Positions 1 through 61,100 of a stretch of 64,000 nucleotides of DNA are shown piece after piece. Each line of letters opens with the position of its first letter. The first letter of the stretch is position 1. Location of the stretch: the IMG/VR virus record IMGVR_UViG_3300025131_008220, positions 1 through 64,000 of that record, one strand, 5' to 3'. This DNA comes from a virus. Below the pieces are notes generated by a model. The model worked only from the letters and a program-made list of their open reading frames with translations. It was not told the DNA's origin and searched no databases. Position numbers and translations under genes: made by a program.

Positions 1-334
1 ATTTAAACACGCCCACACCCTTAACGTATGGAAATAGTGGAGATTTCTTCAACCACCTTGCTCTGCCTGCGTACTTAGAGATATTTAAACTACCGGATAT
101 CCATGCATAAGGCGCACACGATTCGTATTTCCAAGCGCTTGAGTATAGTATCTTGTCACCGTGGTCATCACTGAACATTGTGTGAGCCATTTGTAATTGT
201 TTTTGATTGCTGATACACACTGCTTTTTGTCCGACTGATTTTGCCTTACTAATTGTCGGCAGCATTAAAGCCGCTAGGATCGCAATAATAGCAATCACCG
301 CTAGTAGCTCAATAAGCGTGAATCCTTTTTTCAT
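1..334 (-). CDS. Prepilin-type N-terminal cleavage/methylation (DUF1559-like) protein, 3' end outside window
   Basis: Manual translation from ATG at 334 gives [32 protein letters not shown]...CISNQKQL. It is a paralog of the upstream gene with a TGATG stop/start overlap and is not in the ORF track. Confidence 0.88.
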   Translation of the reverse strand, partial: MKKGFTLIELLAVIAIIAILAALMLPTISKAKSVGQKAVCISNQKQLQMAHTMFSDDHGDKILYSSAWKYESCAPYAWISGSLNISKYAGRARWLKKSPLFPYVKGVGVFK

Positions 335-6310: not shown

Positions 6311-6318
6311 TTTGCAAA

Positions 6319-6396
6319 TTATGGGGCACATTTGTTTATTTTTTCTACGTTGAATTCCTCTAGTTTTCCGTTTCTCTTCTTTACTCGAATGGGCAT
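6319..6396 (-). pseudogene. Truncated ATP-cone N-terminus (25 aa)
   Basis: MPIRVKKRNGKLEEFNVEKINKCAP* matches the V.KR.G..E.F...KI start of ATP-cone domains and stops 8 nt before the nrdJ ATG. Confidence 0.7.
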
Positions 6397-13505: not shown

Positions 13506-14248
13506 TCAAGTACAGCGTTTGAGTTTCCGTATTCAAGGCAGAATTCTTTTAATTTTTCTGCTTCCTCTTGAGAAACCTTAAACCATTCATGTCTCCAGTT
13601 GAGCTTTCTCTGGTACAGTCTGTTGTGAATCAAGTTCTCAGGCGTACTGGTCATAAACTCAAATTGAATACATGGATTAGCGCACGAGAGTTGTTGGTAT
13701 CTCTTTATGCAGTTGTTACTCTTGCCTACCTTACAGAGATCGGAGCCTTTCTGCCTAAGGAAGTATGAAAACTCTTTAAACTTCACAATGCTCTTACTAC
13801 TCTCCATAAATTCCCATTTTATATCTCCTTCTTTGAAGGGTCCATCGATCGTCCCCCATATGCCATGTATCGAGTAACACTCTCCTCTATCGAGAGATGC
13901 CATGTCTTCTTCAGAGACCACCAGCCCATTTATGTCGCCTTTTTGAATAAATTGCGGAACCGAAAATCCTGTATACGTTGCTCTTTCCCCAGCCGCACTT
14001 GTCTTTACGCTTTCAATCACGTGCTCTACGCCAAACTTTGCTATGAGCGAAGCATATAGTTTTTTTATTTTTTTTATTTGTGCGTTATATAATTCATATC
14101 CATCATCTGGAAAAACAGATTTATATATCTGCTCCAATGCGCGATGCCGCCGATAACAAGAATCATAAGAACCGGGCAAATCTGTGCGGTCAACCTTGAA
14201 TCCGTCTTCAGTAAATAAATCAGCATAGAGCTTATGTGCGTTTATCAT
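13496..14248 (-). CDS. T5orf172/GIY-YIG-like domain protein (putative homing endonuclease)
   Basis: C-terminal YFLR..CKVGKSNN..RYQQL.CANP...E..IH...EWF. Inserted between primase and helicase. Confidence 0.7.
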   Translation of the reverse strand: MINAHKLYADLFTEDGFKVDRTDLPGSYDSCYRRHRALEQIYKSVFPDDGYELYNAQIKKIKKLYASLIAKFGVEHVIESVKTSAAGERATYTGFSVPQFIQKGDINGLVVSEEDMASLDRGECYSIHGIWGTIDGPFKEGDIKWEFMESSKSIVKFKEFSYFLRQKGSDLCKVGKSNNCIKRYQQLSCANPCIQFEFMTSTPENLIHNRLYQRKLNWRHEWFKVSQEEAEKLKEFCLEYGNSNAVLECP

Positions 14249-15708
14249 AAAAGCTCTTCCCTTCCTTGCTCTTGGTCTTCTAGTGTCCCTTGTAGGGCTC
14301 GATTCTCAATTATGTCTTGTAATGTGCCGTTCTCGGAAACCCTAAAGTTATCTATATTATAATTTATAAAATTAGGAACGTACTTATATCTGTTGCCTTC
14401 TGCTACCCGCACTAAGTCGTGATGCCCTTGAGCGTCCCTACCTTGGAACCGCGTCGCTAACGGAATAAGTTTGTGTGTTCCATACTCTTGTCCTTCTTGA
14501 GAAATCTCTTCTGGAGTCTTCCTTCTGAAGATAGCAACAAAAGACGCGAACCATTGCAGTCTGTCCGACTGGGCAATTGCGCTACTGTCGTCTACCCCGC
14601 TCTCTGCTTGTCTGTTAAGCTGGCAGGCTGTCAGTATGGGTATGTCTAGTTCTAGGGTAAGCTCTTTAAGGGAATTTACTTTCTCTCCTATTAGCTCGTA
14701 CTCTTTCTTGTTGTAGTCTTTTTCTCCTGTTAGCTTAATGTAGTCATAAACAACAACACAGTTATTTCCTCTTCCTACTTGCGAATAATACCAACGCCTT
14801 ATTATGGAGCATATTTCTTCAGTTGGTTTACCTGCAACTGTCATATGTTGAATTTTTTCTTTTGCTAGGGCGAGTCTGGCTTTATTGTCATTGAACTTCT
14901 TTACCATTTCGTCGTTCTTCTTCCACATACCTGTCTCTAGGTACCAGACTGGTATCCCTGTTACTGAGGAAGCGATTCTGAACTGAACATCAACTGTCGC
15001 CATCTCTGTGTCTAATATTAAGGCAGGGCAGTCGTTAAGCACGGACATTCCTGTCGCAAGATGAGATAGAACCGTAGACTTACCATGTTTGGGCCTACTG
15101 ACCCAAGCATAGATGTTTCCCTTTCTTATTCCCCCAAACATCCTGTCAAAATTTCTATATGGAGTCTTTAGCCCCATTTCTTCCTTGGGATCATTTGCCC
15201 TTTCTTGTATAAGGTCCTCTATTCCGTGAAACAAATCCTCCGGCTCGTTGAGTTTAGAGTAGTTTTGTATCTTTTCATTATAGATTTGGTCTGCTTCGGA
15301 AATTATTGAGTCAGCGTCTCTGTGGCCATTTGTTTTAACAAAACCTTTTAATTTGTCTGCTGTCTCATCTATGTCCCGCCTTATCCTTATTTTACATAAC
15401 TCTTGGCACGCCTCTATGACGGCTGGTTTTTTGATTTGAGTAAAGGATATGTCCTCTATGTAGTTAAAAATGTCTACCTCACTTTTGAAGGAGACCCCTA
15501 GGTTTTTAATTTGATGCGCTAAAAGCGTTTTATCTAGCTTTTTGCCAGAAGAGAGGATGTCTTTTATTGTTGAGTAGATGATGTAGTGCTCTTTAGACAC
15601 AAAGTCTGAGGAGTTAATAAACCTGTCTACATCAAAAAAGACGTCTGGGTATTTAATTAAGCCACCCAAAACGTGCCTTTCTATTTTAAGAGAAGAAATG
15701 TTAGACAT
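14245..15708 (-). CDS. dnaB: Replicative DNA helicase (DnaB family)
   Basis: Walker A SRPKHGKS, DTEM, VYDYIKL and ACQLNR. Confidence 0.92.
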   Translation of the reverse strand: MSNISSLKIERHVLGGLIKYPDVFFDVDRFINSSDFVSKEHYIIYSTIKDILSSGKKLDKTLLAHQIKNLGVSFKSEVDIFNYIEDISFTQIKKPAVIEACQELCKIRIRRDIDETADKLKGFVKTNGHRDADSIISEADQIYNEKIQNYSKLNEPEDLFHGIEDLIQERANDPKEEMGLKTPYRNFDRMFGGIRKGNIYAWVSRPKHGKSTVLSHLATGMSVLNDCPALILDTEMATVDVQFRIASSVTGIPVWYLETGMWKKNDEMVKKFNDNKARLALAKEKIQHMTVAGKPTEEICSIIRRWYYSQVGRGNNCVVVYDYIKLTGEKDYNKKEYELIGEKVNSLKELTLELDIPILTACQLNRQAESGVDDSSAIAQSDRLQWFASFVAIFRRKTPEEISQEGQEYGTHKLIPLATRFQGRDAQGHHDLVRVAEGNRYKYVPNFINYNIDNFRVSENGTLQDIIENRALQGTLEDQEQGREELL

Positions 15709-17489: not shown

Positions 17490-18157
17490 GTGTCGTCCAC
17501 TACAAAATTTAACTCTTCGCGGATTATTTTTTGGTTTTTCCGATTTTCAAAATCAATTACGAATCCTTGCTTATCGTGTATTGGGGAGCGCTCTAGGAAA
17601 GTGATAGCTTTCTTAAGAATATCCTTACTGTCTTGGAGTTGGCCTAAGCCTATGTTGCAAGACTTGCAGAGCCAGCCTCTGAACTTGCCAGATTCGTGAA
17701 AATGATCGAAGACAGGAGCCTTGTATCCGAAAGCCCTATTTTTTTCAAATTCATCGCCGCAAAGCTCGCAGTGGTCTGGGCATGGGTAAGCTCTCTTCTT
17801 CCCTTCTTTTCTCTCTTTGGCATCTAGCCCTTCGCAAACTCTACATTTACAAAATGGGCTTTTCTCTCTTAATTTATTAAACTCCTGCAGTCTGAATTCT
17901 GATATAGGCAGGTCGCATTTACATTTATTACAGTGGGCTGTTTTTAATTCAAAATTTTTATCTGCTTTTAGGTGGTCTTGTCGAACATGGTTTCTAGGCT
18001 TATAGCGATAGTTTGATGCGTATGGATGCATAGCTCGCCATTTTTCCAAGAAGATTTCTCTTGCGGCTATTCCTGCGTCGCCCTTTCTCTTTGTGCGTGC
18101 TGCTTTTTTAGGCTTATTCTCTAACCCAAAGAGCTCAAATAAAAGAGTCTGTATCAT
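17486..18157 (-). CDS. Endonuclease VII-domain protein (homing endonuclease-like)
   Basis: CELCG, VFDHFHESGKFRGWLCKSCNIGLG and upstream Cys pairs. Confidence 0.85.
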   Translation of the reverse strand: MIQTLLFELFGLENKPKKAARTKRKGDAGIAAREIFLEKWRAMHPYASNYRYKPRNHVRQDHLKADKNFELKTAHCNKCKCDLPISEFRLQEFNKLREKSPFCKCRVCEGLDAKERKEGKKRAYPCPDHCELCGDEFEKNRAFGYKAPVFDHFHESGKFRGWLCKSCNIGLGQLQDSKDILKKAITFLERSPIHDKQGFVIDFENRKNQKIIREELNFVVDDT

Positions 18158-19293
18158 TAGGATAGAACTTCTTTAAACTTGTTGTAAAAATAGTCGGTTA
18201 CTGGTTGATTGTCTTCCAGAAAATTAAACAAACCGTTTTTACCTTGAAACTTTTCTGGTATATCTATTTTATTTGAAGCTAGCTCTTCCACAATATCTGG
18301 GGAGACTTTAATCCAAGCTCCTGCTTTGGTAACAAACTCATACTGAATTAAAAGATCAACGATCTCTAGCTCTTTCCAGATACTTGTTCCCCCTGTTCTC
18401 CCTCTTTTGATTGGGTAGGCTATTACAACATTAGTTTTTTCGTTAGGAGACTTCTTTACCGTAAGTTTAGACCACTGCCCTAAGATTTTATTCGTGACTC
18501 TGTCTGGTGCTTTTTTGTCATCTTCTAAAATGTAATCCTTTTTGTACCTCGCTTCGAACTCAAGAATCCAGTTAGCAAAATGAAGTAAGGCGTTGCCTCC
18601 TGTGGCCGAGGTTTGCCTAATGGGAGCTTTTGAATAAGGGTCAAGTTGTATGTCTGCTCTGACTTGGCTTATGAAAATAGCCATGTGTCCTCTTTTGGTC
18701 AGGGCCGTTGCGACCTTCTTCATGAAGACAGAGCTGATAGTAGCCCCTCCTGCGACCTTAGTGGCATCGTGAAGGGCTTTTTCGCTGTCGCCCTTGGTCT
18801 GGAGGCCATCAACTGAATCAAGTATAAAAATGTACCTTTTTTCCTCCTCGTTGAATTGAATCAGCATTTTCATCATATCGAAAACAGATTCGTAAATATT
18901 GCTCTCGTATATAAAACACGTTCCGTCTTTCCAGCTTTCCGGGTCTGCCGTATGTACAAAATCTACACCACATCTTTCTCTCATCTCAGGAGTCAGCCTC
19001 CCTTCGCATTTGAAGTACACCGCTCTGGAATTGGGCATTTCAAGGAAGTGCTTCGCTACTTCGAGGGCTTCCGATGTTTTTCCTCCTTCGTTTATACCAC
19101 AGAAACGATGTAGTCCCGGACCAAACCCTCCTCCAGTTTCTATGTCTAGAGTGAGGGATCCTGACGAAACTTTATATTCTATCGCCTCTTCGTAATTGTA
19201 ATGATCCTCTTTATGCGTCTTGAGGAAGGACGATAACTGTTCCGATGCTGTTAGAATATTATCCGATTGTTTTATCTTCTTTTTCGCTGCCAT
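18157..19293 (-). CDS. recA: RecA/UvsX-like recombinase
   Basis: SSGSLTLDIETGGG, GINEGGKT, ILDSVD, FISQVR, GGNALLHFA and KAGAW. Confidence 0.88.
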   Translation of the reverse strand: MAAKKKIKQSDNILTASEQLSSFLKTHKEDHYNYEEAIEYKVSSGSLTLDIETGGGFGPGLHRFCGINEGGKTSEALEVAKHFLEMPNSRAVYFKCEGRLTPEMRERCGVDFVHTADPESWKDGTCFIYESNIYESVFDMMKMLIQFNEEEKRYIFILDSVDGLQTKGDSEKALHDATKVAGGATISSVFMKKVATALTKRGHMAIFISQVRADIQLDPYSKAPIRQTSATGGNALLHFANWILEFEARYKKDYILEDDKKAPDRVTNKILGQWSKLTVKKSPNEKTNVVIAYPIKRGRTGGTSIWKELEIVDLLIQYEFVTKAGAWIKVSPDIVEELASNKIDIPEKFQGKNGLFNFLEDNQPVTDYFYNKFKEVLS

Positions 19294-38297: not shown

Positions 38298-38852
38298 TTA
38301 ATGTATTTTTCTTTTTAAAATTTCAGCACCTTTTCTATGCAGGTTTATGGCTGTCTGAGAACTGAAGCCTAAGAGATTTCCTATTTTGGCCCAAGTCATC
38401 TTGCCTCCCGAGAAGTATCTAAGAGAGTAGACTTTTTCAACTCTAGGGTCTTTCATTTTTCCTAGCTCGTTAAATATAAAAGACTTCATCTCTTTATTTG
38501 AGTAAGGATTTCCTTGCTCAGTTATTATGGTGTTCTGCCTGACTTTTTCGCTTAGTCTATTTATTTTAGCGGACTTACTTATTAAATGTAGGCATTTATA
38601 CTTAACATTATTACTAAGCCAAGTACAAAAACTAGATCCTTTTTCTAAATTAAAACTTTTCGCCGACTCGTAAATAATTAAATCCTTATCTAATAGAATA
38701 TCATTAGGGTCGGCCCCAGATTTAGCCATAGACGACGAGTACTTAGAATACATAGACAAAAAGACAGGAGAATACCTAGATATCACCTTAAGTAGAGACA
38801 GGTCACAATCTTTTTCTTGTATCTTCTTTATTTCCAGATAGAAGTTATTCAT
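38298..38852 (-). CDS. Phage sigma70-family sigma factor-like protein
   Basis: Region-2-like SF..EKGSSFCTWL..VKY and region-4 HTH LRYF...MTWAKIGNLLGFSSQTA.NLHRKG...LKR. Confidence 0.75.
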   Translation of the reverse strand: MNNFYLEIKKIQEKDCDLSLLKVISRYSPVFLSMYSKYSSSMAKSGADPNDILLDKDLIIYESAKSFNLEKGSSFCTWLSNNVKYKCLHLISKSAKINRLSEKVRQNTIITEQGNPYSNKEMKSFIFNELGKMKDPRVEKVYSLRYFSGGKMTWAKIGNLLGFSSQTAINLHRKGAEILKRKIH

Positions 38853-38867
38853 TTTTTTTTAAAATTA

Positions 38868-38894
38868 ATAAAAGAGGATTCCGCAAGCGGAATC
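38868..38894 (-). terminator. Intrinsic terminator-like hairpin ending the putative ncRNA
   Basis: GATTCCG-CTTG-CGGAATC followed by CTCTTTTATT. Confidence 0.6.
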
Positions 38895-39217
38895 GACGTA
38901 GCTTTTTTGCTGAGCACAGTTCACCCAACTTACAAAACACTTAAAACGACTACGAAAGGACGCTTTCGCTTCCACTTTAGTTCTATTCGCAGGGACTTTC
39001 TCCTTTTCGGCCCGCACATACGAGCCTAGCTAATGACTTTCGCAACCTATACCAAGTGTGATTAAAAATGGTAGAACTTTTTTAAATGATCACTTCCCTC
39101 ATACGCCGCCTGCACCCGCTTGTAGCGTACCTTCCAAGGTTCGAGAAGCCCCTTCGGGGTTGTTGGTCTCTCAAGAGTTACCAGACTCGCTTTCGCTTAG
39201 AACCATTCTTCACACTT
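38868..39217 (-). ncRNA. Putative ~350-nt structured non-coding RNA or leader, family not recognised
   Basis: Perfect promoter upstream, a 5' long-range helix, several GNRA-capped hairpins and a terminal hairpin. No convincing ORF. Confidence 0.65.
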
Positions 39218-39222
39218 TCTCT

Positions 39223-39251
39223 ATTATAAATTTTACTTGACTTTCTGTCAA
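39223..39251 (-). promoter_or_regulatory. Perfect sigma70 promoter (leftward)
   Basis: TTGACA (39251-39246), N17, TATAAT (39228-39223). Confidence 0.88.
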
Positions 39252-39265
39252 GTTTTTTTTAAAAT
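39237..39265 (+). promoter_or_regulatory. Sigma70 promoter (rightward, leaderless)
   Basis: TTGACT-N17-TAAAAT with ATG 39272 after a 6-nt gap. Confidence 0.78.
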
Positions 39266-39271
39266 TTAAAA

Positions 39272-39724
39272 ATGGACAGACTCAGCTGGGTAGACTATGG
39301 CATAGAACTAGCAAAAACAGCGGCCCTAAGAAGCGAAGACCCATTCATTCAGGTTGGCTGCTGCCTTTTTAGGCCAGATAATAGCATCGCATCTCTAGGC
39401 TACAATGGGGCACCTCCCGGAGTTGACATAGACTGGTCAGATAGAGACGAAAGAAGGAAAAGAGTTATTCATGCTGAAACAAACGCCCTAAAGAATATAA
39501 AACCCCAAGAAGCAGACAGAATGTTTGTAACCTTAATGCCCTGTGGGGACTGCATTAAAAACGTAGCTTCTTATGGAATAAAGCAAATATTTTATATTAA
39601 AACATACGACCTTGATAAAACAGCTATAGACCTAGCATCAGAATTTGGAATAAATTTAACACAACACAATAATGATCTCCGTATATATCAAAAAATTAGA
39701 AGAGTCGGCAGTGACGCCGACTAG
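39272..39724 (+). CDS. dCMP deaminase
   Basis: RSEDP..QVG, GYNG, HAETNA and PCGDC. Confidence 0.92.
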   Translation: MDRLSWVDYGIELAKTAALRSEDPFIQVGCCLFRPDNSIASLGYNGAPPGVDIDWSDRDERRKRVIHAETNALKNIKPQEADRMFVTLMPCGDCIKNVASYGIKQIFYIKTYDLDKTAIDLASEFGINLTQHNNDLRIYQKIRRVGSDAD

Positions 39725-40939: not shown

Positions 40940-41523
40940 TGGAAGAAATAAACACACCCCAACAAGCCGCCATGTTTGACCATATTCTCTTCGAAGCAGA
41001 CCTCCCTAGAAAAGGATTGCCTAACGAAATAAAAGAGATAGACATGTCTGACACAGAGTTTCAAACCACAGACCTGTCTAAAACCATGGACACTTGGTCT
41101 GTATCTAGCGCCGGAGAACTTTTCTTCCACGAGAGCGAGCCCTTCTTTGTCAAAGACGAGAACCACTCAATGGGGGGATACTTTAAAGAAAAGCACAAAG
41201 GTATAAAAAGGGAAGAAAAGACAAAGTCAATCCACTTTTATAACGTTTTTGAAGGAAAGGAAAAAGACTATTGGATTTCTTATGACGCTTTATTTAGAAA
41301 AGGCAACTTAGTATCTGTTGATTTAAATGAAGTAGAAGAAGTAGACCAAGAAACAAGGAAAGAAGCAAGAGCAAAAGCAAGGGAAATAGCAGAGAGCTTT
41401 AACAAAAAGATGAACAGAACCACCCACACCCTACTTAAGCCTATTAAGTTTTGCCTTGGTGTCTTTTTAATCTCCCTGCACTTTTGCGGAAGCAAGCTCT
41501 CGGAACTACACTCTAAGCTATGA
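40939..41523 (+). CDS. Conserved phage hypothetical protein (paralog of 1278..1811)
   Basis: MFD, FQTTDL, IHFY and WISY.A.F.KG.L motifs. Confidence 0.75.
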   Translation: MEEINTPQQAAMFDHILFEADLPRKGLPNEIKEIDMSDTEFQTTDLSKTMDTWSVSSAGELFFHESEPFFVKDENHSMGGYFKEKHKGIKREEKTKSIHFYNVFEGKEKDYWISYDALFRKGNLVSVDLNEVEEVDQETRKEARAKAREIAESFNKKMNRTTHTLLKPIKFCLGVFLISLHFCGSKLSELHSKL

Positions 41524-42146
41524 TAGGACTAAGCGGAATAGCAGGATCTGGTAAGGATTTATTTTGTAAACTCCTTTTAAAAGAGATAAAAGGAACAAGG
41601 ATAGCTCTAGCAGACCCCTTAAAGGAAGAGACTAGAGGATTTATATTACAAAAATATGGAATAGATATTTTAAATTGCACCCTAGAACAAAAGAATAAAG
41701 TCAGAGATTTTTTGGTTTTCTATGGAGGGATAAAGAGATACGAATCTAAAGGAACGTACTGGACAGATAAAGCACAAAAGAAGATTGACGCATCTAAACA
41801 CATCTCCGTTGTCACTGATATACGCTACGCCGAATATGAGAACGACGAGATACATTGGATTAAAGCTACGAACAAAGGGGTCTTAGTTCATATTAGAAAA
41901 TATTGCGAAATAGAAACCTTTGGCCCTCATATGAAAAGAGTTTATTTTGATCCTCCTAACGAAGACGAAAGAAGAAGCGATCCTAAGCTCATGGAAAAAG
42001 CAGACTACTCCATTGAATGGCCCCACGTAGAGGACGCCACCCAAGAGGAAATTAAAGAAACGCTAGCCCCTTACGCAAAAGAATTTGCCGAATGGTACAA
42101 TAAAAAGAAAAATTATGAAGCAAGCAAAGCAAAACGCAGCAAGTAA
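41520..42146 (+). CDS. Deoxynucleoside monophosphate kinase
   Basis: IGLSGIAGSGKD, ALADPLKE and VTDIRY..NE. Confidence 0.85.
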   Translation: MIGLSGIAGSGKDLFCKLLLKEIKGTRIALADPLKEETRGFILQKYGIDILNCTLEQKNKVRDFLVFYGGIKRYESKGTYWTDKAQKKIDASKHISVVTDIRYAEYENDEIHWIKATNKGVLVHIRKYCEIETFGPHMKRVYFDPPNEDERRSDPKLMEKADYSIEWPHVEDATQEEIKETLAPYAKEFAEWYNKKKNYEASKAKRSK

Positions 42147-48255: not shown

Positions 48256-48309
48256 AAAAGACTTGACAAGTGAATAAGTTTTTGTTAGAATAAGTAAAGC
48301 AAGACGAAT
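48245..48309 (+). repeat. 65-bp promoter cassette, copy 2
   Basis: TTGACA (48263), N17, TAGAAT (48286). 61/65 identical to the reverse complement of 35094..35158. Confidence 0.85.
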
Positions 48310-48500
48310 TTCCTCTCTCGACGGAGAGAGGTCGGTGTGACGGAACAATCCCTCCCAAAGGGGTAACGTAGCGACTGCGAGAAGTACAGAGACCAATCGG
48401 TTGAGAAAAATCGCGGGTGAGTCCGAAGTAAGTAGATCTGAAACATTTGTTTTCTGGGTACTGAAAAGGTGCGGGTACACAAATACTCCCGCCACCATTT
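48297..48500 (+). ncRNA. Putative ~200-nt structured non-coding RNA or leader, family not recognised
   Basis: Follows a consensus promoter, is GC-richer than its flanks and has at least five hairpins. Confidence 0.55.
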
Positions 48501-48772: not shown

Positions 48773-49132
48773 CTACCACTTACCAATAGGGCAAGACTCC
48801 TCAGCTAAATAAACCTTCAGTGGAACAACACAACCGCACTCAGCGCATCTTTGGTTTTCTTTAATAAACCAAGCGCACCCGTGGCATATAGCGGTCCTTT
48901 TCTCTATTAGGGACATTTCCGCTTTTATCTTCTTTCCGGCCACTAAAGCCTTTGCAGTTTTAGAGAGACTCTTAGCTAAGTTAGCCGCCATCTCCTTCTT
49001 GCTGGGGAGCTTCTTTTTGTCCAGCTTTATAAAATCTTTTTTTAAAGAACCCCTTTTTCTTCCAGAACTATTCGTTTGAGTAGACCCAATTGGTTCGATA
49101 TAAGACCCTCCTGAAAAATTTTTTAAACTCAT
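48773..49132 (-). CDS. Cys-rich DUF6171-like protein
   Basis: R..IC..C...C.ECGC...K......CP.GKW. Confidence 0.7.
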   Translation of the reverse strand: MSLKNFSGGSYIEPIGSTQTNSSGRKRGSLKKDFIKLDKKKLPSKKEMAANLAKSLSKTAKALVAGKKIKAEMSLIEKRTAICHGCAWFIKENQRCAECGCVVPLKVYLAEESCPIGKW

Positions 49133-52100
49133 TTTTTTAAATCAAAAACCAGAGGATCGTTGCTAACTTTTAATGTTTTTATTTGTCCCGGGTAGCAGTA
49201 ATGAATACAAGGCCCCATGTATGCCGTCTTTCCGTACCCCTTTATGCCTTTTCTAACGGCATACAGATACTCGTTAGCGCCGTAAACAGCCATAGCCAAG
49301 TCAAACTCAGGCTCAACCTTAAAAGTTCCTTTCGCGGGAACTTGTACAATAGAAGATGACTCCGCATAAGTCTCTTGAGGCCCTATGACATCATCTCCCT
49401 CACTTAAATCAAACAAGTCTTCATAACTATGGGTAACATTGTAGGTGCTTGAAGCTCCACCTTCGCAAAGGCTATGCCTTCCATTTCTTTTATAAACTTC
49501 CCCTATTTTAGTCTCTTCACATGTAGACCTACCCTCTACAAGGGAGCACCTTAGCTTAGATTCCTCTGGTCTATATTTTTCCTTTAAGCCAACAGGCAGA
49601 CTCCTAGTGAAATCTGGAGAAGCAACAACTTCATACTCAGTCCAAACCTTTACTGTTCTTAAAAACGCGGATAAGAAAGGCTTATCTCTGGTCTGACAAC
49701 CAAAAACTATTTGATTGGAGTACCCAGCCCTTATATATTCAGAGCCCCTTATATCAACCAACACGCCACCTTCAACCGGATCAAATTGGGTGCCATCAAC
49801 TGTAGAATTTCCTAAAGAGGAGTCTTTAACAGGAGGGCGTAGAGGCCAAAGCTCGCTGCTTACATCAAATACCTCACTTTTGTAAACAAGCTCTCCCCCG
49901 TAGGCGTAAGCTCTTCTGTTAATTGGGGTAGGCAAAGGGAGACCTTCTGTTTTAATAGGGTGATCGCCATACTCCATGGGAGGATTACAGTAGACACCCA
50001 ATTTCTTAGGTATATTTACATTATTTGGCAATCCAATACTCTTAGGAGTTCTAGGGTCATCCTCATCTTTTTTGAATTTCTTGGCCTCTGGAGTATCTCT
50101 TAACTCTTCGTCTACATCTTCCCATATCGGGCTTCCGAGATCAGCGTCGTAGTCTGTTATATTCTTAAGATCCCCTGAATTACCCCCATCACTTTCGAAC
50201 GCAGAAAAATGAGCCACTTTAACTTCATTGGAGTCGGGATCAAGATAAACTATATAATTTATTCTAGACTTGTTCTCATAAGTTAAATAATCATATTCAT
50301 CATCCCCCATACCCCAGCTGGAATCGGCATCCCCTGCAGAATCGAGATTTGGAAAGGTCAGTCCAGCCATATCTGGATTATTTATATATCTATATTCAAC
50401 CTGACTGAACCTCCTTACCTTTGCATATAAAGGAGCTTCTACTCGTATTTTATGCATAAAGTTAACAGCTCTAGCGTAAGTATTGAAAACCTCTGCAGTA
50501 ATAGCAGCTCCCGGCAATATACCAAAAGACTGAGGCAAGGATGGGTTATCCTCCCTAGAGAAAGAACTTATCCAAGGAGTCGTCTTACTAGCTATTTCGT
50601 TGTTTACGACCCTATACTCTACTATAGATGAGTTATTCGCTAAAGCCCAAGCTTCTCCGGGATCAACGTCCGGATAAACCTCATACTGAATGAACGGCTT
50701 ATCACTTCCGGGCTGATACTTAACCTCTACAGACCTGTTGCTAACAGAAGAAGAGTCCGTCTGGTCCTCCTGAAACAAGCCATCTACATACTCATTCTCT
50801 GTCCCCTTTATTTCCGAAATCTCGTCGGGCATAGATCTTCCATAATTCTGAGAACCCTTTATTTGTTCTATAGAGGAAGTAGCAAAGTTTTTTATTTTTA
50901 TAATCCTGTCGGCCTGAGCCTGTATGTCTCCCCATTCTTTATCATCTTCCGAGGAACCCTTCATAAAATCAACAGAGCCCCTGTTGACACTTTCACTCAA
51001 CTCCTCGTACTCTGTGTAATCAGCTATTTTCTCTGTGTCCTCATAAGTCAACCCGAACTCTTCCTGCTCTTCCTTAGGTAGCGAAGACTCGTTTCCTGTT
51101 ATAGTTGCTTTATACAGCTGCAAACCGGGCACATCGGTAATTGATATCCGGTCAAGACCCCTTTCTTTATTAGGGGAGCCAGCAAGATTAGCTATCTTTA
51201 AGTTATGTATAATGATAGGAGTCACATCAGATCTATACTGCTCTACTTTAACTGTCTTAAGTCCATCAACATCGGCATAGCCAGTACCAGCATTGATTAC
51301 TTCTATAAATTTTAATTTTCCGTTTTCTATTATGGAGCTAGCCTGAGCTTTCCTAAAGTGAGACGGCTTTTTATCTGGTTCTGCTATTGAGATAGTCGGA
51401 GGAGTCCTATAATTATCTCCGGAATCACTTATCATAACCTTAGATATGCCCCCTCGATTAATAGGGTCTTTATAGTTAGCCCTCATATTATGTTCTAAGT
51501 TAAACATATACAGCCTCGAGCAAGGAAGGGTTAAGTCTACGTTCCTATTATGTTTTTTAAAATCAAAGGTTCCGAACTTAACCAAACCACTTTCCGGAAA
51601 AGATACCGACTTCTTGATGTCAGGATTTTCAACCATACTCAAAGAGTGCTGGTATAGATCTATTTCTTCGTTAAGTACACCGTCTCCAGACAAGTCTGAG
51701 TCATATATAATAGACCTCCACTTGAAAGGTAGCCTCATTGGAGATATTTGTTTTTCTTTAGACTGCCATAACTCTTGGCTATCTTTGTCTTTATAGCTTA
51801 TGTCTACGCCAGTTATGACTATCCTATATTTCTTACTGGCGTCTATGCCCTCCCTTTCTATGGAAAATTTGTTCCCTTTATGGCTTAAACCCTCCTCTAC
51901 ACTGCTCCAACTTACCCCATCAGAGCTATTTTCTAAGTCGTAGCGAATGCGAACTGGTTTAGTTCTCTGCTTCTCTTCTAATCCCCCAAAGCCATCTGCA
52001 AAGCCATCCCAAAAATCAGTAATATGAAAATCTAAACTACTGCGCCCCGGAGCGACATTAACATAAGGATATATATATTTACATACCGCAGGCATACCCA

Positions 52101-55100
52101 TATCGAAAAACAAATCTGCAGTAAAATCTTTACTAGAAGATATAGGAGCGACATGTTCATCAAGCCTTGAAAGCCCTGAAGCAGTAAGTTGTTCACCCTT
52201 CTGGGAGTTAGATAGAAGTGAGGCGTGACCTTCTGTGTCGTAAGACTCATAGACTTGTTTAAATTGGTCTCTGAACCCCTTATTTAACATAGGTATTTGA
52301 TAATCAAAGTAAGGGGAGCCAACTAAATCTTCCCCATTGTCCCCATCTGTCTCGGCAGGATAATCAATGATACAATCCGCTTCCTCAACTATACATAGAT
52401 TTTCAAAAACTTTATTTCTCAGAAAGTTTCCGGCTGCCCCCACTGATTTAGATGTTCGGGCCTCTGGCCCAAGCGTTTCTGGTGTATCTTCGGCAACATC
52501 ATAATTTAAAACAACCTTCAGATCCTCATTTGTATTAAAGATCACGCCAGAAGTACTAAGGTTAAGCAGAGGATCATCTTCATTGAATATAACGCTACCA
52601 TTTAAAGTAATAGATTTAATATCACTACTCTTCTTATATATGTATCTGTATCCTTGTTTAGTATTTAACTTTATATTCAATGTTACAGTTTTATCAGAAT
52701 CAGAATTTGTATAGCTAACTCTTTCTATTTGAGTATTAGATCTATATAATAAATTTTTCCAAGAAGAGAATATATTAAAACTTTCACTTGTCCAATGAGA
52801 CGCCGGAATTGCTGTATAATCAGGATCCAACCCTGTTACTGTTCCGTAGCCGAGGCCGCCGTAAGTTTCTCCATGCCAGTGCTTAGCTGCGGTAGAGAGT
52901 TCTAAATTAGCCCTTATCTTATTCCCATCTAAGACATTATTAGTTGCCCAAGAGTCTACCCTCTCGCTGGATATTTCACTAAGCGGTGGCTCTAGATAGA
53001 AAGTCCTAGACCCTATCACAATTGGGGAATTTAATGAGGTTACAGGGCTGTCAGAATCAGGTTGTCCGTAAACGGAGTCATCACCAAGGCAAGATTTTAC
53101 AGATCTATAAGTCCCATCGTCTTCTGTTTCTAGATCAAAATAATTTACCACCTTAAATACTTGACCGGGTAATTCATTATTTGGATCAGCAGATGACACA
53201 GTATCCTCTATATCCGCATCCACCTTATTAAAGGAATCAAGATTTGAGTCTGAGCTAAATATTTTTAATAAAGTTATAGTATTTTTTGTTTCGTTACCGC
53301 TAGTGGCCTGACTAGTAACCCTAGCAAAATAAGGCTTACCGCCAACTATGGAGCCTTTGCTATTTTTAAATACAATTGCGTCTCCATTTGAAATTGCTCC
53401 CCTAATTACAAGCTGGTTACTACTTAAATAGGCGTCGCCTTTATCAGAACTAGTAGCACCTATGGTCCTCCAATTTCTATTTTCACCAGAGAACCTCAAA
53501 ACCCCTCCCGGCCTATATATATCGTGGTAAGATATAGAGCTAACCTCTGTGTCTAAATAATATTTTAACCCAGCAGTCTCGCTCTCATTAGTTAGATACG
53601 AACCTATCTGATAATCTTTCTTTAGATTTTCAAATACAAGCTTCCTCTCCGTAAGCTTTTTAAGCCTAAGCCTGATAGCCTTGTAAGCCTGCTTCCCCTT
53701 GGATGTGTTATAAGAAAGGCCAAGTTGCTCCCTCGTGTCACCACCGTTGATGCCGAAAGGAATAAAAGAATAGCCTTGATGATTTTTTAAACTTTTTCTT
53801 CTGTCTCTTTCTGCTATAGCGAGAGTCTTTGTTATACCTGAGTCATGAGTACCCCCACCTTCTCTCATCGCATATTCCTGACCCTCATTAGTGTTAAAAT
53901 CAAGATTTAAACTGCTTATAGTTCCATCTGCTACAAAAGGCAAAGAGTCTCTGGCTCCTAAAGAGATAGACAACACGACTTTACCTGTATTATTAGTAAA
54001 AGACAGGCTGCTTTTTATTTCGTATTCGTATCCGGGGCTATCTATCTTGTTGTCTTCAAACTTTACCCTAAGCACGTAGTCTTTGTCAGTAGAATTATCT
54101 TTGTTTGTCCACGTGACGTCAGAAAAGCTTTCAGAAAAATCCAAGTCTGGATCTTTTGGTATTTTAAATTCAAAATAATCCTTCTTAAAAGCGCCTTCTA
54201 TATCTTTTAATTTTTTGCCTTGTATTAGTTCATAAGAGGCTCCATTAGCTACTTTGTTACTAATCCTGCCATTTAAGAAATTCTCTTTTTGATAATCTTC
54301 CGACACCTTGGTCCAAGTAGGATCAACGTAATCATCATCTTCAGTCTTGTTAGCTATCTCCTCGTTTAGAGCTTCAGTCTCTTTTTCTACTATATCTTTT
54401 ATAGCCAAATCCGACTCATCAACTCCTTCTGCTTTAAATAAAGAAGCTTTCACTACTGCGAAATAATTATAATGTATTTGATAGTTTTCCTTACCTGCGA
54501 CTCCTATAAATTTTTCTCCGGGCCAGTAGCTTTTGCCATTATACCAAATTACCGGAAAGAATTCCTTAGACACTACATCGGTGTACTTATGTGAGCCGTA
54601 AGCAGTGCCGCCCGGTGCACCCCTTACGGCTGTTGGAGCAAAGTCGTACTTTACAGGAACAGTCTCATCCCCAATCTGATAATATCCATCGAAATCTTCT
54701 AGTATGTAATACTTGCCACTCTCTATACCAGAGACGGTAACTAACCCTGTTCTTTCGTTAAACTCCTTGGAGTAACAGATTCTTTCGTGTCCAGTACTAA
54801 TGGAGTAGCCTATTGTTCTTGCTGGCATATCCCAAGAGATCTTAAGGCCATTTAATATATAATCAGACGAGTCCTTATCGTAGTAAATCTCCTTGCGTTC
54901 GATGCCATAGTCTAATAGACTGGAAGCAGAGTCCTTCTTATCTCCATATAAGACCACGCCAAATTTATAGGGATTGTCGAAATTGCTAATAGACTCGTAG
55001 CCGGAAAGCCCATCACTCTCTATAAACGGCGGGGAAGGCCAGTGAAGATTAGTCCTAAATATGTTGGAAAACTTATATCTAGTCCCAACATAGTTAACAT

Positions 55101-58100
55101 TAAAAGACTCTTTCTTTTTAATAATCCATTCTGCGTTTTGTTCTTCTTCATTAAAATAATTTGGATCTTTTTGTAAATGAGGAATATGAACATCTTTCAA
55201 GCTAATAAACCAATCTCTTCTATTAAACCTTGGACATAGATTATAGTCAAGCTCCTCTGAATTGGTAAACGCAGTTTTTTCTGATGAGTATATTTTATTG
55301 ATTTTTCCGCCAGCTGTAATATTGACGGCTTTACTGGAGGCATTTATTATCTTTAGCCCATCAACAGTTCCCGTATACTCTATGTCTGCTGGCTGAGTTA
55401 TTACGGTTACTTTGTTCTTAGTGCTTATAAAATGTTTTGGCCTAAGCATGTCTATCTGCCGTCCCTCTAGCTCATCTTCAGTTAGATCATCAACCATCAG
55501 AGCTCTCATAGATTTATTAGCAGGCAAAGACCCCACTCCATCGGATTCAAAATCCTCTATTCTTAATTTATTTTCAAATATCCGGCACTGACTATTAGAT
55601 ATGTTACCTATCAGAGTGTTATCTTTTTTAGCCGAGTATATGATATCAAAGGGATCTTTAAATATTACTATTTTGCCGTCATAAAATGGTTTATTTAAAT
55701 AAAAGTTTTTATAAAGAGTCGTCTCTTCAAAGGCTGCATCTCCTCCTTTCGCTACCTCAGTATAGCTTTGTAGTTCTGTTACGGTTGGATCACCTGTTCC
55801 TTCCTGAGCGCACGAGATCATGATCTTGCATTTAGTGGAGCCAGTTAATAGGTCAACTTCGTAATCGTTTTCATCCCCTCCCATGTCTTTGAAATTATTA
55901 TCATTTGAATCTAATTTTCTTAAATTGACAGGGCTCCTGTCTTTATTGTACAGACAAAATTCAGTTCTCTGATCGTGCTTAAAGATATAATCATAATATC
56001 TATTAGATAAAACAACCTTGTCTTTAACAGACTCATCTAATATAAACTCAAACATGTTGCAAACAGGAATCTTTATTTCCATTTTGCTTGATAAAGATGG
56101 ATCAAATTTTACTGGTTTTGAATGAGATATATCTATCCTATCATCATACTTATTATATAGAGCATAATTAGTACTCCATTTTTTGAGCCTAGATAGATCC
56201 GGAGTAAAACCACCTCTTTGAAGCTTTGAGTCAACGCTTGACCAAATGATAAGCGGCACAAAAGTAGTAGTAAAATAAGCATCGTCCGTTACGTTGAATG
56301 CTTTTACGTTTTCAGCGTCAAAAAGAACGACTTTATCCTTGTGAATTGAAGCTGATATCTCCACAGCTCCATCTTTTAAAGTGTGCAGCTTCACGTTTCT
56401 GTTGTCGCTATCTATAATATAATTTTCTGACGAGTCTACTTTAAAATCACAGTAAGCATAAGCAGGTATAGCATAGGTAGATGCCCCTTCTATTGTCTTT
56501 GAGGCATTATAGTTTTTAACATGGAAAGGGGACTTGCTGTTGTTTATTATTTTTATAGAACCAACATCCTTATGTATAGCTAAAGCCCCTGAAACTGAAT
56601 TTTGCTTCGAAGTTATGAAAACCCCAGAGTCAGAGGAGAAAATAGCATTACTTAAAGTAACCACCTCTACACCATCATCGTCACCAGTCACATCACTAAA
56701 GGCACCATCGCTATACTTGATCTTTTTAGCTGCCCCCGCAGCAATAGTAGCATTAGCAAACACAGAGGCCCCCTCAGGACAAGAGAGAACGGATGAATTT
56801 CTAGAAGCATTCACTACCGTAAAATAGATATTATTAAGTTCGAGCATATCCTGCCTAGAAGGTAAAGAGATGTTTTGTTGATCAGCAAAGACATGTTTAA
56901 ACGTTGACCCTTCTGCGACGCCGATATCCAAAGACACAGACTTCTCTTTTAAAAGACGGACATTAGAGCCTATCTTTCCGTTCTCGTCTTTTGTATCATT
57001 TAGCGTTATCTGATACGGGTTATACTCATTAGCTAGCGGCTGCATCTTATTTTCGTCATCAAAGAAAAACCCAAAAGGCCCGGTAAAGCTACCTAATTCG
57101 GAAGTCATAACATCTTGTATGCCAAGACTCAAGACTTTATTTTTATTTAAGTAGTTAGCAGTATCAGTCTGCGATATATATGGCGAGCCAATGCCAAAGT
57201 CGGCATCCCCATCCAAACTTAACAAATAGTAACCCTCTTCCTCCGTCTCCTCAGGAAAGTACGATAAAATTTTAGCAGCTATTGAGTTTTTCTTATCGTC
57301 ACTCAGATTGTTAGAGCCAGCATCTACAGCAACGACAGAAGATATTTTGATGTTTTCATAAACAGTATTTATTATATTTATGTTGCTAACGTTTTCTGCA
57401 CCAAACCCAACAATCTTATAATATTCACTATCAGAAGTCAAATCTATCTCTTCGTTTTTAGATAGCGTATAGGCTTCTTCAACAAGAGACTTTAGGTTTA
57501 TCTCTTCTGCATCTGACGAGGTTATTTTATCATAATAAACATATAAAGATAAAGAGAGCTGCTTTCCGAACACATGATAGTCTATGGAGCTATCTAAAGA
57601 CGTAGAAGAGTGGTTTATGTTAAAGACTGACTGTTCGTCGTCTACAGCAGATATATGCCTAAAGTAATAAGGGTTGTCGTCTGGGTAAACACTAAAGTTA
57701 TCAAGCTCAACAGAATACGCTACCATGGGGTGAAGCTTGCCGTCCCTATAAAGTTCCGACTCTTCGTTAAGGTCACTAACAATTCCCGGATTATATGAAT
57801 TATCGTCTCCTTCCACGGAGATTAACAAAGAAGACGTAGATATATTTGCTATTTGAAAATTAAAATATTCTGAGGCGCTGATTGGCCTAAAGATTTGATT
57901 TTCTCCAGTCCCATTTAAATAATGCCCTGATCCATCCGCCTTATATAAGTAAGGACGCAAGAAATTAGGCTGGCTATCTACAACTATCTTCTTTCCGTTG
58001 TGAGTATCGTAGTCAAGAATTATATCTCCCTCTCGGGATATGCTGTACCTATCTCTCTTACTTTTTGTTTTTTCGTAATTACGATATAACTTTCCGTCGC

Positions 58101-61100
58101 TAACTATAACAGAATCAGAACTTAAATAAAATCTATAGCCAGATACAGAATGGTACAAGCCGTCGTCTTCGTCTTCTTTCAAACTACCGTAAAGGGAGTA
58201 GGCAGTATTAGTCGTTGATAAGTCAGCATTAGATATAACTAACATAGCGTTAGCGTTAACCACCACAGAAGCCGTTCTAGAGAAGTTCCTTGCCGTTATA
58301 GGCATGTTGGTCATGTTAACAACAGCAACCTGCTTTAAATTAGTATAAGCGTCAGGCAATATTATTTCTCTATCTTCATTATATTCTTCGTCTTCGTTTG
58401 GAGTATAAAATACAAAGTTTAACGCTTGCTTAGTTCCCCCTGCAGGGGTATACGTGAATTGACTTTGAGCGTTATCTATTCCTAGATTTGCTCTATCTGG
58501 AATATGTATTTCGTTTTTAGGGTAGTATATAACATCTCTATTTGCTACGCTTTGGTCTTGCAAAGTGAAAGCGCCATTACCGTCATGTTTGTAGGCTCTA
58601 TTTTTAAGTAAAGTATCAGTGCTGCTATCTTGTGTGTTTTTAATGGTAACTGAATCTAAACCGCCATTAATAAAATAATCATTATCAAAGTCATTGTCTG
58701 TTAAAGCAGCTTGAGCAGTAAACACTCCACTTGTTATAATTTGATTTTTACTAGCTGCCGCAGCTGTTGCTTTATTTATATCCAAACTATCAACTGAGCC
58801 ATCTAAACCAATCAAAGTATGGACCCCAGAGAAAGCTAGACCTCCTTGAGTATAAGAGCCGTCAGAGGCACTGAATAGCTCCACAGACTCTTTGTTGCCT
58901 AAAGAGCTGACAATAGTAGAGTCGTCAGAGTAAGCTTTTATATTTTGAGAACCGCCTAAGTTTATTATTGAAACCTTACCATAGTCTAAGGCATCTGTAT
59001 AAAAGGTCTCTGAGAAGAATGTATAGTCAGAAACACTGGCATAAGTAACTGGGACAGATAGAGCCTTATCTGAGTATAAAAGGAACTCGTTTTCATTTAC
59101 TACTTTGACAAACAAAGTTTGAGTCATTAAGTCTGCTTCGTCTACGTCTGCATCCAGAGCCGAGCCAGCAGCAAAAGTAAAAGGTATAGAATTTGATGTA
59201 GTCTTTGCAGTAGCGGCGCTGAGACCATTAGAGTATAAGTCGTATATATTTCCAGCCCCTACAGGAGTTCCCCCCGACTCCTTGTTAGAACCCACTCCAA
59301 TCCTTATAAACATTTTCCCAGCTTCTAATGGCCCATTCGTATCCCACTGAAAAGTGTAATAATACTCATTAAAAGTACCAATTAAAGGCTCCGGTATAGT
59401 AAAATAGTCCTCGACCAAGTACCTATAGCTTCCATCGGTCCCATTGTCTACATATCGAAAATATGTATCTGATTGAGTGTCATAAACCAATAAAGTATCC
59501 CCTTCTGCTATGCTGTGAGAGCCTATAGTTCCATTAAAAGTATCCTTCGCTGAGTCCCAATCAGAAGTTTCAAAATAATAATCAACCAAAGTCAACCTAT
59601 CGCACGGGAAGACCATTTTATGATTTGTAACAAGACCATGATTACTTAAATTAAACTTATTGCTCCCAGTAAGAGAAACCTTAGAGAGCTGGAATGCCTC
59701 ACCTTCTGATGCTGGCGCATATTTATTAACCTTACCCTCGGAAAAGAAAGATCGCAAGGCCACGTTACTTAAAGAGCCGTCAAGAACAAGAAAGTCCTCA
59801 TCACTCAAAGCAGGGGAAGAGAAGCTTTCAATAGGGGTGGTTCGAAAGTTATCGTAGTTAGTAGCAATCTCTACGTCTTCGTCTTCAAAATAATCATAAG
59901 TTGACGCGCTAAAACCCTCCAAGGAGTCCATGGTAACGCTAGTTATATCACTGTTATCACTTATAGCCGCAGCTGGGTACAATACGTTCGACAGGCTTTC
60001 GGCCGCGTTTACAAACGTTAAAGCAAAGCCCCTGTTGTAGTCAAAATCAGTTAGGTTTGTCTTCAAAGTAGGTAGCTCGACAGCAAATTCTTCATTTCTA
60101 CTTATCAAAACTCTTTCTTTTGCATCACTTGGTTGATTAAACTTATATTTATTAGAATTTTTATTCTGTGGGTCGGCCCCAATAAACTCTACATAGAACT
60201 TGTTTTCTCCCCCTGATCCTTGCCCTATGATATGCGAGCTTTTACCAACCCTCACCAAGTCTTTATTAGATAAATTATCTACTACATACCTATGGAAACC
60301 CGAGTCCTCTTGGTCATTAAATTTATATACATTGTCTTCTGACTCTAGGTCATACGCCAAGGTAGTGCTAGGATGAGCAGAGATAAAGAAAAACTCAAAG
60401 TTAGTTGGGTAAGTGTCTTTTTTAAATTTAAGTTGTATTTTTTCTGAAGAGCCAGAGTAGGAAAAGATTTTTCCGTGTGACCGAGAGTCTATTATAATCT
60501 GAGAACCAGTTATAGCACTTATGTTAGTAAAGGACCACCCATAGGATTTCTTTTCCACCCTTACTCCAATAACACCCGGGGGAGCGCTATACTCTAGATG
60601 GCCGTCAATAAAAATTCTCATTGTAGGGGTCCTTTCGTCCCTTAGAAAATCAAAGCTTATATCGTTAACCTGAGATCTTACGACGCTGAAATTAAAACCC
60701 TCGGTAGTGCTATCAGAATTTACTCTAACATCCACATCCTCATTATGAATAAATACCTCTTTATTGTCTGATGACTTTACATTTAATTGATTATATCTGA
60801 TCACCTCTATGTTGCTAGTTGACCAGTTTCGTATAGTTTTTCCCCCGGACTCAGACTTAGAACAAGTAAATTTTCTAGTAGTTTGCCTAGGTATATAGTC
60901 AACTGATTTTGAATCTATTTTATAGCCCGACTCAGATACAACCTTTATCTCGTCATCTGTAGCGTTTAAAAACGATACATGCTCGCCTCCTGCAAAGCCG
61001 CTAGGCAATACAAGAGTGGAGTTAGTATCTATAACGCCTGTTATGTCGACATCGTTTTCGGTTAATACTATCTTGTCATGATCAATAACTATAACACCAG

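Follow-up and report, generated by a model that had tools for sequence, protein, structure and literature searches.

A large conserved RNA element predicted ahead of an ECF-like sigma-factor gene in one clade of uncultured marine phages

In the virus record IMGVR_UViG_3300025131_008220, a large structured RNA element is predicted to run into the gene of a phage sigma factor. The record is 83.9 kb long and is rated about 54% complete; its positions 1 to 64,000, hereafter the window, are part of it and were analysed here. The element lies in a 419-bp gap between two divergent genes, one for dCMP deaminase on the plus strand and one on the minus strand for a protein of 184 amino acids (aa) that resembles extracytoplasmic function (ECF) sigma factors. 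It has a conserved core of about 310 nucleotides (nt), or about 340 nt when counted to the end of a terminator-like hairpin. On comparative grounds, we hold with high confidence that the RNA element is real, and judged against the catalogued RNA families, from which it is absent, it is a new family. As to its role, we give about an even chance to a cis-acting leader or attenuator that would set the output of the sigma gene. A sequence-only reading of the same DNA had proposed an unrecognised large structured RNA directed toward the sigma-like gene, and this proposal is borne out by conservation, covariation, strand-specific G-U pairs and the lack of an Rfam match.

Related loci were gathered through the sigma protein, which has 66 relatives of 56-97% identity in a large protein collection. 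This yielded 8 viral and 51 metagenome loci, and since all of the metagenome loci were obtained through sigma, the association of RNA and sigma among them is biased. By blastn, every locus with sufficient DNA ahead of sigma contains the intergenic element, at 72-95% identity. A covariance model of its 5' domain (model R1, 174 positions) matched 40 of the 55 close sigma loci, and the 15 misses were contigs ending no more than about 190 nt from the sigma start or inside the gene, together with one contig (L072) described below. The sigma gene is also present on all eight viral contigs that carry the core motif. Over aligned positions, the mean identity is 86% for the RNA core, 77% for the sigma coding sequence and 80% for the deaminase coding sequence, and the RNA core is better conserved than the sigma coding sequence in 21 of 21 loci and than the deaminase coding sequence in 20 of 21. 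Searches farther afield returned nothing related: a 22-nt core motif had three matches in 185,579 species genomes, all of them chance matches of 22-32 nt, and viral contigs scanned with two looser motifs added 5 and 1 loci, all of which are chance matches that show no wider similarity. Among cultured phages, neither the RNA (blastn) nor the sigma protein (tblastn) found a match.

The structural evidence comes from 33 sequences on a plain MAFFT alignment. RNAalifold predicted 52 pairs on this alignment, 20 of them compensated. A curated structure comprises 17 helices with 90 pairs. Of its 2908 cells, 92.2% are paired, compared with 39-49% when the partners are slid, and two-sided changes occur at 36 of the 90 pairs (203 cells), compared with 8-15 pairs (21-44 cells) for slid partners. 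None of 500 shuffles matched the observed values of pairing and covariation. When the 5' domain was re-aligned to model R1, 93.3% of cells were paired and 22 of 38 pairs were compensated, values that are biased towards the model by the fitted alignment. Within the proposed pairs, G-U cells greatly exceed A-C cells (327 versus 62), and therefore the pattern points to a minus-strand transcript only. The predicted fold has the following parts.

39054 to 39217, minus strand: 5' domain, P1 to P8, 165 nt; 91-93% of cells paired against 39-49% with slid partners; a match of 196.8 bits to model R1 in the window
39217-39210 with 39061-39054, minus strand: P1, closing the 5' domain; 8 of 8 pairs compensated (model-fitted alignment)
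39209-39202 with 39072-39065, minus strand: P2, closing the 5' domain; 6 of 8 pairs compensated (model-fitted alignment)
39196-39189, minus strand: P3, GNRA hairpin with loop variants GAAA, GUAA, GGAA and GCAA
39176-39167, minus strand: P4, small hairpin of the 5' domain
39159-39150, minus strand: P5, small hairpin of the 5' domain
39149-39143 with 39098-39092, minus strand: P6, 7-bp helix of the 5' domain
39140-39129, minus strand: P7, variable hairpin, deleted in 5 of 33 sequences
39126-39105, minus strand: P8, in the 5' domain
38948 to 39047, minus strand: 3' domain, P9 to P12, from RNAalifold and curated covariation
39047-39037 with 38958-38948, minus strand: P9, 11-bp helix closing the 3' domain; 99.2% paired, 6 pairs compensated
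39026-39009, minus strand: P10; 6 of 6 pairs compensated
39003-38993, minus strand: P11; its third pair is GC in 14, AU in 9 and CG in 8 sequences
38972-38959, minus strand: P12, GNRA-type hairpin of the 3' domain
38911 to 38923, minus strand: P13, hairpin of UGAAC/GUUCA type; two pairs with two-sided changes, 79.9% paired (MAFFT alignment)
39073 to 39078 with 38984-38979, minus strand: PK1, AGUUCU with AGAACU; 198 of 198 cells paired, 13 one-sided changes
39162 to 39166 with 38929-38925, minus strand: PK2, CCAAC with GUUGG, from RNAalifold; 165 of 165 cells paired, nearly invariant
39110 to 39114 with 38992-38988, minus strand: PK3, a possible pairing of UGCAG with CUGCG; 165 of 165 cells paired, one change from G-U to A-U

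The outer helix had already been proposed from the single sequence, with AAGUGUGA-AGAAUGGU (39217-39202) pairing to ACCAUUUU-(UAA)-UCACACUU (39072-39054). It corresponds to P1 and P2, whose sequences differ widely between clades, and RNAduplex recovered it in 33 of 33 sequences (in L052 partially, owing to slice boundaries). Inside the 5' domain lies a near-invariant core, GCGGGUGCAGGCGGCGU. Most of the local hairpins read from the window are retained as well: the GC-GNRA-GC and CCC/GGG hairpins, GGA/UCC, GGAAGC-GAAA-GCGUCC and the final hairpin GAUUCCG-CUUG-CGGAAUC are present, CCUU/AAGG covaries at 4 of 4 pairs although 5 of the 33 sequences lack it, and GGCUCG/CGGGCC covaries at 6 of 6. Three details were not borne out. 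The supposed CUGCGAA/UUCGUAG stem is 76.6% paired with no compensation, and UUCGUAG pairs instead with GGUUGCGAAAG in P9; a local CGCU-ACA-AGCG hairpin is indistinguishable from a longer-range GCU/GGC pairing; and GGUUCUA (39204-39198), suggested as a second partner of UAGAACU, is 84.9% paired without compensation. The first suggested partner agrees with the alignment, in which UAGAACU (38985-38979) is complementary to AGUUCUA (39078-39072) and the six scored pairs (38984-38979/39078-39073) are those of PK1, all 13 changed cells being A-to-G opposite U. PK3 has a competitor, GUCUG (39186-39182) with CAGGC (39112-39108), which is 97.6% paired and inseparable from it, and P13 is weakened in the window itself and takes clade-specific forms in relatives. 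The long-range contacts are probable and would clamp the domains together.

That the region holds no RNA element at all, being a degraded or unusual coding region or a set of chance hairpins, we find hardly credible. Such a reading can draw on a minimum free energy z-score of 0.02, on spurious open reading frames (ORFs) of 47-70 aa that can be drawn in the window, and on a slight phase bias of the substitutions, which number 590, 755 and 582 by position modulo 3. However, no frame stays open across the relatives: in six frames of the 33 sequences, the search for a conserved ORF left a smallest longest-open stretch of at most 23 aa per frame, and of 218 indel runs, 197 have a length not divisible by 3 and break the frame. 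Protein coding of the RNA region was rejected on these two counts. In the same kind of test, true coding DNA from in front of distant sigma genes has a bias by codon phase of about 4:1, and the strong compensatory changes and the strand-specific excess of G-U pairs also speak against a protein or chance origin.

Comparison with known families supports the novelty of the RNA. Rfam 15 (4227 models) gave no match on the whole window at the gathering threshold, and at E <= 10 the region 38700-39400 had five matches of at most 19.9 bits, all far below threshold and none on the minus-strand core. Six relatives searched at E <= 1 gave one irrelevant match, 20 distant-sigma loci gave none at the gathering threshold, and ARAGORN found no tRNA or tmRNA. 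In the literature and in Rfam 15 we found no description of this RNA or of a comparable RNA for a phage sigma factor. A 2023 paper on 10,000 candidate viral RNAs (PMC10690425), with over 8,000 candidates from IMG/VR, lists only motifs of 29-151 nt, and the word "sigma" occurs 0 times in its main text; a fragment of the present RNA might stand in its supplementary alignments.

Several individual resemblances were followed and rejected. Motifs that look like parts of RNase P or of group I introns are either not conserved (GGAGAAAGUCC becomes GGGCAUAGACCC) or fall within other covarying helices. T-box leaders consist of a Stem I with a specifier loop and a T-box antiterminator sequence, and the GUUGGGUG segment presumably bears a loose resemblance to the T-box sequence; however, no T-box match was found at E <= 10, and this segment instead pairs with CCAAC in 165 of 165 cells. 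6S RNA, about 180 nt long, forms a rod whose large central bubble imitates the DNA of an open promoter. The RNA described here shares with it a sigma-70 promoter, an abundant-looking character and a thematic tie to RNA polymerase and sigma, whereas its branched fold of two multi-helix domains with long-range pairings is unlike a rod with a central bubble, and no 6S model matched. A closer likeness is offered by GOLLD, ROOL, OLE, raiA and HEARO, large structured RNAs from bacteria and phages that are called "ornate" and are orphans. GOLLD, ROOL and OLE are the subject of a 2025 cryo-EM paper (PMC12286853). Like the ornate RNAs, as their properties are generally understood, the present RNA is multi-helix, pseudoknotted, conserved in sequence, several hundred nt long and furnished with GNRA-type loops; it is also phage-borne, has no assigned function and is detectable only by comparative analysis. 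In contrast to them, it is smaller (a core of about 310 nt), is always the leader of one gene, that of sigma, and is known from a single clade, and no Rfam model reaches a meaningful E-value on the window or the six relatives.

The relation of the RNA to the sigma gene depends on the layout of the locus, whose other features are as follows.

39223 to 39251, minus strand: host-type promoter TTGACA-17-TATAAT with 12 of 12 matches in a promoter scan; predicted start about 39218-39217
39235 to 39253, both strands: palindrome ACTTGAC-N5-GTCAAGT holding two back-to-back -35 boxes; the sole perfect copy in the window
38895 to 38910, minus strand: hypervariable linker of about 16 nt, reaching about 60 nt in aligned relatives
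38853 to 38894, minus strand: terminator-like hairpin GAUUCCG-CUUG-CGGAAUC (38894-38877) and U/A-rich tail up to the sigma ATG, from a terminator scan
38298 to 38852, minus strand: divergent ECF-like sigma-factor gene, 184 aa, predicted to share a transcript with the RNA; sub-threshold profile matches
39272 to 39724, plus strand: dCMP deaminase gene (Pfam dCMP_cyt_deam_1, E = 9e-17)

The perfect promoter noticed from the sequence alone, TTGACA-17-TATAAT, was recovered by the scan with 12 of 12 matches at 39251-39223. The pattern TTGACA-16..18-TATA[AC]T is present in all 32 related loci searched, 334-422 nt upstream of the sigma ATG, and the closing helix begins 1-2 nt past the predicted start in each of the 33 sequences. 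From the hairpin to the sigma ATG, the scan found no second promoter of at least 9/12, in agreement with the sequence-only reading, and a weak promoter would escape such a scan; the next consensus promoter (38288-38260) lies beyond the sigma stop codon. Since the sigma gene has no other recognisable promoter, the RNA would be an obligatory 5' leader of this gene, and the route through the RNA appears to be the sole way in which the gene gets transcribed. Four other promoters of at least 11/12 were found in the 30-50 kb part of the window, and three of them end 9-10 nt upstream of an ATG (34223 with the ATG at 34185, 38288 with 38249, and 43174 with 43212). Because of these three, the 368-nt leader is exceptional in this phage. 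The RNA thus has what is expected of a leader, namely, a 5' position on the same strand with no other promoter of at least 9/12 and a conserved structured domain.

The two boxes of the palindrome belong to opposite promoters, TTGACA to that of the RNA on the minus strand and TTGACT-17-TAAAAT to that of the dCMP deaminase on the plus strand, the latter ending 6 nt before the deaminase ATG. The palindrome is kept in aligned relatives, and the deaminase is the constant upstream neighbour, with a homologous N terminus in 21 of 21 loci examined. Because the two promoters overlap at the -35 boxes, they probably exclude each other. A transcript that arises at the strand-switch point between divergent promoters might also be a replication primer or an origin-associated RNA, as the sequence-only reading had considered, and a local minimum of cumulative GC skew lies near 39.6 kb. 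We regard this as very unlikely. The GC skew follows gene orientation, switching at about 40 kb and a second time at about 47-50 kb, with no independent origin signal, repeats having been sought only as far as the palindrome, and the origin reading of the skew was rejected for this reason; a primer would also not account for the close linkage with sigma or for the conservation of the hairpin ahead of the sigma ATG.

According to the leader interpretation, host sigma-70 RNA polymerase would start at the consensus promoter, probably at 39218-39217, and the transcript would fold into the 5' domain (P1 to P8) and the 3' domain (P9 to P12), clamped by two or three long-range pairings and followed by P13. 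Next, 24 nt short of the start codon of the ECF-like sigma gene, the polymerase would meet the terminator-like hairpin, which is conserved. The RNA fold, alone or together with a ligand or protein, might set the share of transcripts that pass the hairpin or are translated, and the amount and timing of the phage sigma factor would be set thereby through termination, read-through and possibly sensing. Transcripts that end at the hairpin may remain as a separate RNA, about 340 nt long.

The hairpin on which this mechanism turns is followed by CUCUUUUAUU, and the sigma ATG lies 24 nt past it. It is present in 30 of the 33 sequences with 4 of its 7 pairs compensated, the arm GAUUCCGC changing to CACUCCGC, CACUGCGC, CACCGCGC or CACUUCGC with matching 3' arms. 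In the other three (L051, L054 and L068) it is missing and the RNA continues directly into the ATG; therefore, the RNA must belong to the sigma mRNA there. In one clade (L053, L055, L058, L060 and L061), a stretch of the linker some 60-30 nt ahead of the hairpin is complementary to the 5' arm and loop of the hairpin and could form an antiterminator. For 2 of the 33 sequences, L053 and L058, minimum-energy folding predicts this antiterminator form. The attenuator or switch put forward from the window alone fits best but is unproven: the sole consensus promoter and the covarying hairpin agree with it, but the hairpin is absent from three sequences, the U tract is lacking in one clade and the antiterminator occurs in one clade.

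Large attenuation leaders and riboswitches, such as those of the T-box and cobalamin classes, and the long structured leader of rpoS provide the nearest models for such control. The present RNA resembles them in being promoter-proximal and on the same strand, with a conserved folded domain and then a hairpin just before the ORF, and, as with rpoS, the controlled gene would be that of a sigma factor. It differs from them in that no known aptamer or T-box model matches, a hypervariable linker separates fold and hairpin, and a competing antiterminator pairing is found in one clade only. A bolder proposal, which we advance tentatively and consider rather doubtful, is that the phage controls its own sigma factor by a new RNA class of ribozyme or riboswitch grade, which would either sense a cellular or phage signal and gate read-through into the sigma gene, as an RNA timer of development, or bind the polymerase or sigma directly.

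Phage systems of transcript read-through were also considered. In lambdoid phages, a short constitutive transcript from PR' ends at the terminator tR' before the late genes and is governed by Q, and in HK022 the put RNA acts on the polymerase. The locus described here similarly has a strong promoter, a short non-coding transcript, a terminator-like hairpin and a key regulator behind it, and read-through would decide a developmental step. In contrast to PR'-tR' and put, the RNA is a large one with an intricate fold and high conservation, and what stands behind the hairpin is a sigma-factor gene; neither a protein like Q or N nor a binding site for one was identified. A processive antitermination element of the put kind, acting on its own polymerase so that it reads through the hairpin and further terminators, would suit a promoter-proximal RNA directly upstream of a terminator-like hairpin through which sigma must be read. 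We judge it improbable, because the RNA is far larger than the known RNA antiterminators (about 70-120 nt), and since only one short gene stands before the next promoter (38288-38260), long-range antitermination has little to act on.

The main rival of the leader interpretation, which we hold to be possible but distinctly the less probable, is an abundant stand-alone RNA of about 340 nt that acts in trans, with sigma transcribed only by incidental read-through. Its job might be, for example, to bind the host or phage RNA polymerase or sigma, or to serve as a decoy against host defence or host factors. The fold is more elaborate and conserved than a simple attenuator needs, with 14 helices, GNRA loops and near-invariant cores; the hypervariable linker uncouples it from the hairpin, RNA genes are laid out in this way, with a perfect promoter and a terminator-like hairpin, the distant relatives of sigma do without a leader, and pieces from RNA libraries fall on the RNA region. 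However, the RNA never occurs apart from sigma, since all eight motif-bearing viral contigs hold the sigma gene (with the bias already stated for the metagenome loci), and in the three sequences without the hairpin nothing of this kind would end the RNA.

The assignment of the sigma gene itself is based on a series of matches below threshold. TIGR02937 scores 29.3 bits on residues 37-182 against a cut-off of 42.9, and Pfam Sigma70_r2 matches with E = 0.008, under its cut-off. Among the relatives, 26 of 28 match TIGR02937 and 28 of 28 match TIGR02985, and a profile of the family matches FliA structures with E = 5e-4. By the consistency of these matches, the sigma gene is probably a distant ECF-like member. 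One contig of the family deserves separate mention: L072, 1,174 nt long, encodes at 82-1122 a 346-aa ORF that joins an unrelated Gly/Lys/Thr-rich N-terminal part to the C-terminal 54 residues (region 4-like) of the sigma family, which could be a chimeric assembly or a real fusion.

A full HMMER scan gave 854 sigma relatives at E <= 0.001, with scores that fall from E = 2e-96 (the cluster of the window itself), together with a few part-profile fragments, to E = 1e-46. Viral contigs hold 236 such relatives, of which 80 loci were taken (L084-L163). Over these, model R1 found only five already known contigs and one marginal match in L161 (21 bits, E = 0.016), which lies inside the sigma ORF and was taken as chance. 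The distant loci have another layout. The median gap upstream of sigma is 0, and none of the 74 distant loci has a gap of at least 250 nt; the upstream stretches are coding, with an open frame and the phase bias of about 4:1 mentioned above. In L120 and the 73 other loci, the sigma start overlaps the end of an upstream dNMP-kinase-like gene. The L120 sigma is 35% identical to that of the window; in its region 939-2091, the kinase-like ORF begins at 939 and is 35% identical to the window gene 41520-42146, and the upstream stretch examined there holds a TTGACA box. By gene order, sigma is the second gene of an early operon in the distant relatives and stands alone behind the RNA in the clade of the window. 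The kinase homologue of the window (41520-42146) belongs to the block of nucleotide-metabolism genes on the plus strand, so that the two layouts differ by a rearrangement, and since the distant relatives have no RNA and sigma second in the operon, the RNA is a lineage-specific addition. As far as these searches reach, the RNA is confined to one clade of uncultured marine phages.

Expression was looked for in RNA libraries. Pieces of 151 nt identical to 38899-39049, 38925-39075 and 39172-39322 are present in two RNA libraries from two studies. The RNA-library contigs leave the sigma ORF and most of the deaminase ORF uncovered, an absence that carries no evidential weight.

Several of the results weigh against the leader interpretation. 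The distant relatives are the first: model R1 had no convincing match in the 74 distant sigma loci, and because these lack a leader, the sigma gene itself needs no RNA control. At the 3' end, many relatives have only a moderate share of U in the sequence that follows the hairpin, and the clade of L045, L047 and L052 has no U-rich tract there, so that termination is not assured; the linker, about 16-60 nt long and free of conservation, parts the conserved fold from the hairpin; and outside the L053-L061 clade no conserved antiterminator pairing was found in the window or in the other clades of the 33 sequences. As for the fold, the window sequence is no more stable than its shuffles (45 of 100 were at least as stable), and therefore the single-sequence fold is no evidence. 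PK1 to PK3 together are paired in 528 of 528 cells with 15 one-sided changes and no two-sided change, so that they are consistent with the alignment but unproven. The library contigs give neither strand, ends nor level, DNA carry-over is possible, and the piece 39172-39322, from an oligo-dT library, spans the predicted start and both divergent promoters; this piece could be DNA carry-over, read-through or an unpredicted start. Taken together, the contigs are therefore a weak hint of expression.

Complex folded RNAs of at least 300 nt are rare, and most of those known are ribozymes, riboswitches or ribonucleoprotein scaffolds. An RNA at the single entry point to the phage's own sigma factor stands at the switch from host-directed to phage-directed transcription. 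If the RNA does gate this switch, phage development would be under RNA-based control of a new kind, and the compact part of promoter, RNA and hairpin could be tested in Escherichia coli without phage culture. Even as a stand-alone RNA, it would be well supported as a candidate, both for solving its structure and for founding a new Rfam family. The restriction of the RNA to one clade, beside relatives with sigma in an early operon, offers a natural comparison for what the RNA adds.

The phage itself is, on sequence comparison, without a cultured relative, and its DnaE-like polymerase has at most 31% identity to that of any deposited phage. Four minus-strand ORFs of the window encode this DnaE-like polymerase (6481-9078), a ribonucleotide reductase (4376-6331), a DnaB-like helicase (14245-15708) and a UvsX-like recombinase (18157-19293). 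At least half of the sampled words were present in 18 of the 24 sequencing runs listed, which are DNA-type marine, seawater or hydrothermal-vent metagenomes, and some of these 18 may be the source sample. A giant ORF of at least 4,956 aa (49129-63999, minus strand) continues past the end of the window. Finally, a consensus promoter of 11/12 on the plus strand (48263-48291) has no ORF start close downstream, the next plus-strand ORF of at least 50 aa beginning at 48401 with a TTG start; directed into convergent minus-strand genes, this promoter may drive a second non-coding or antisense transcript.

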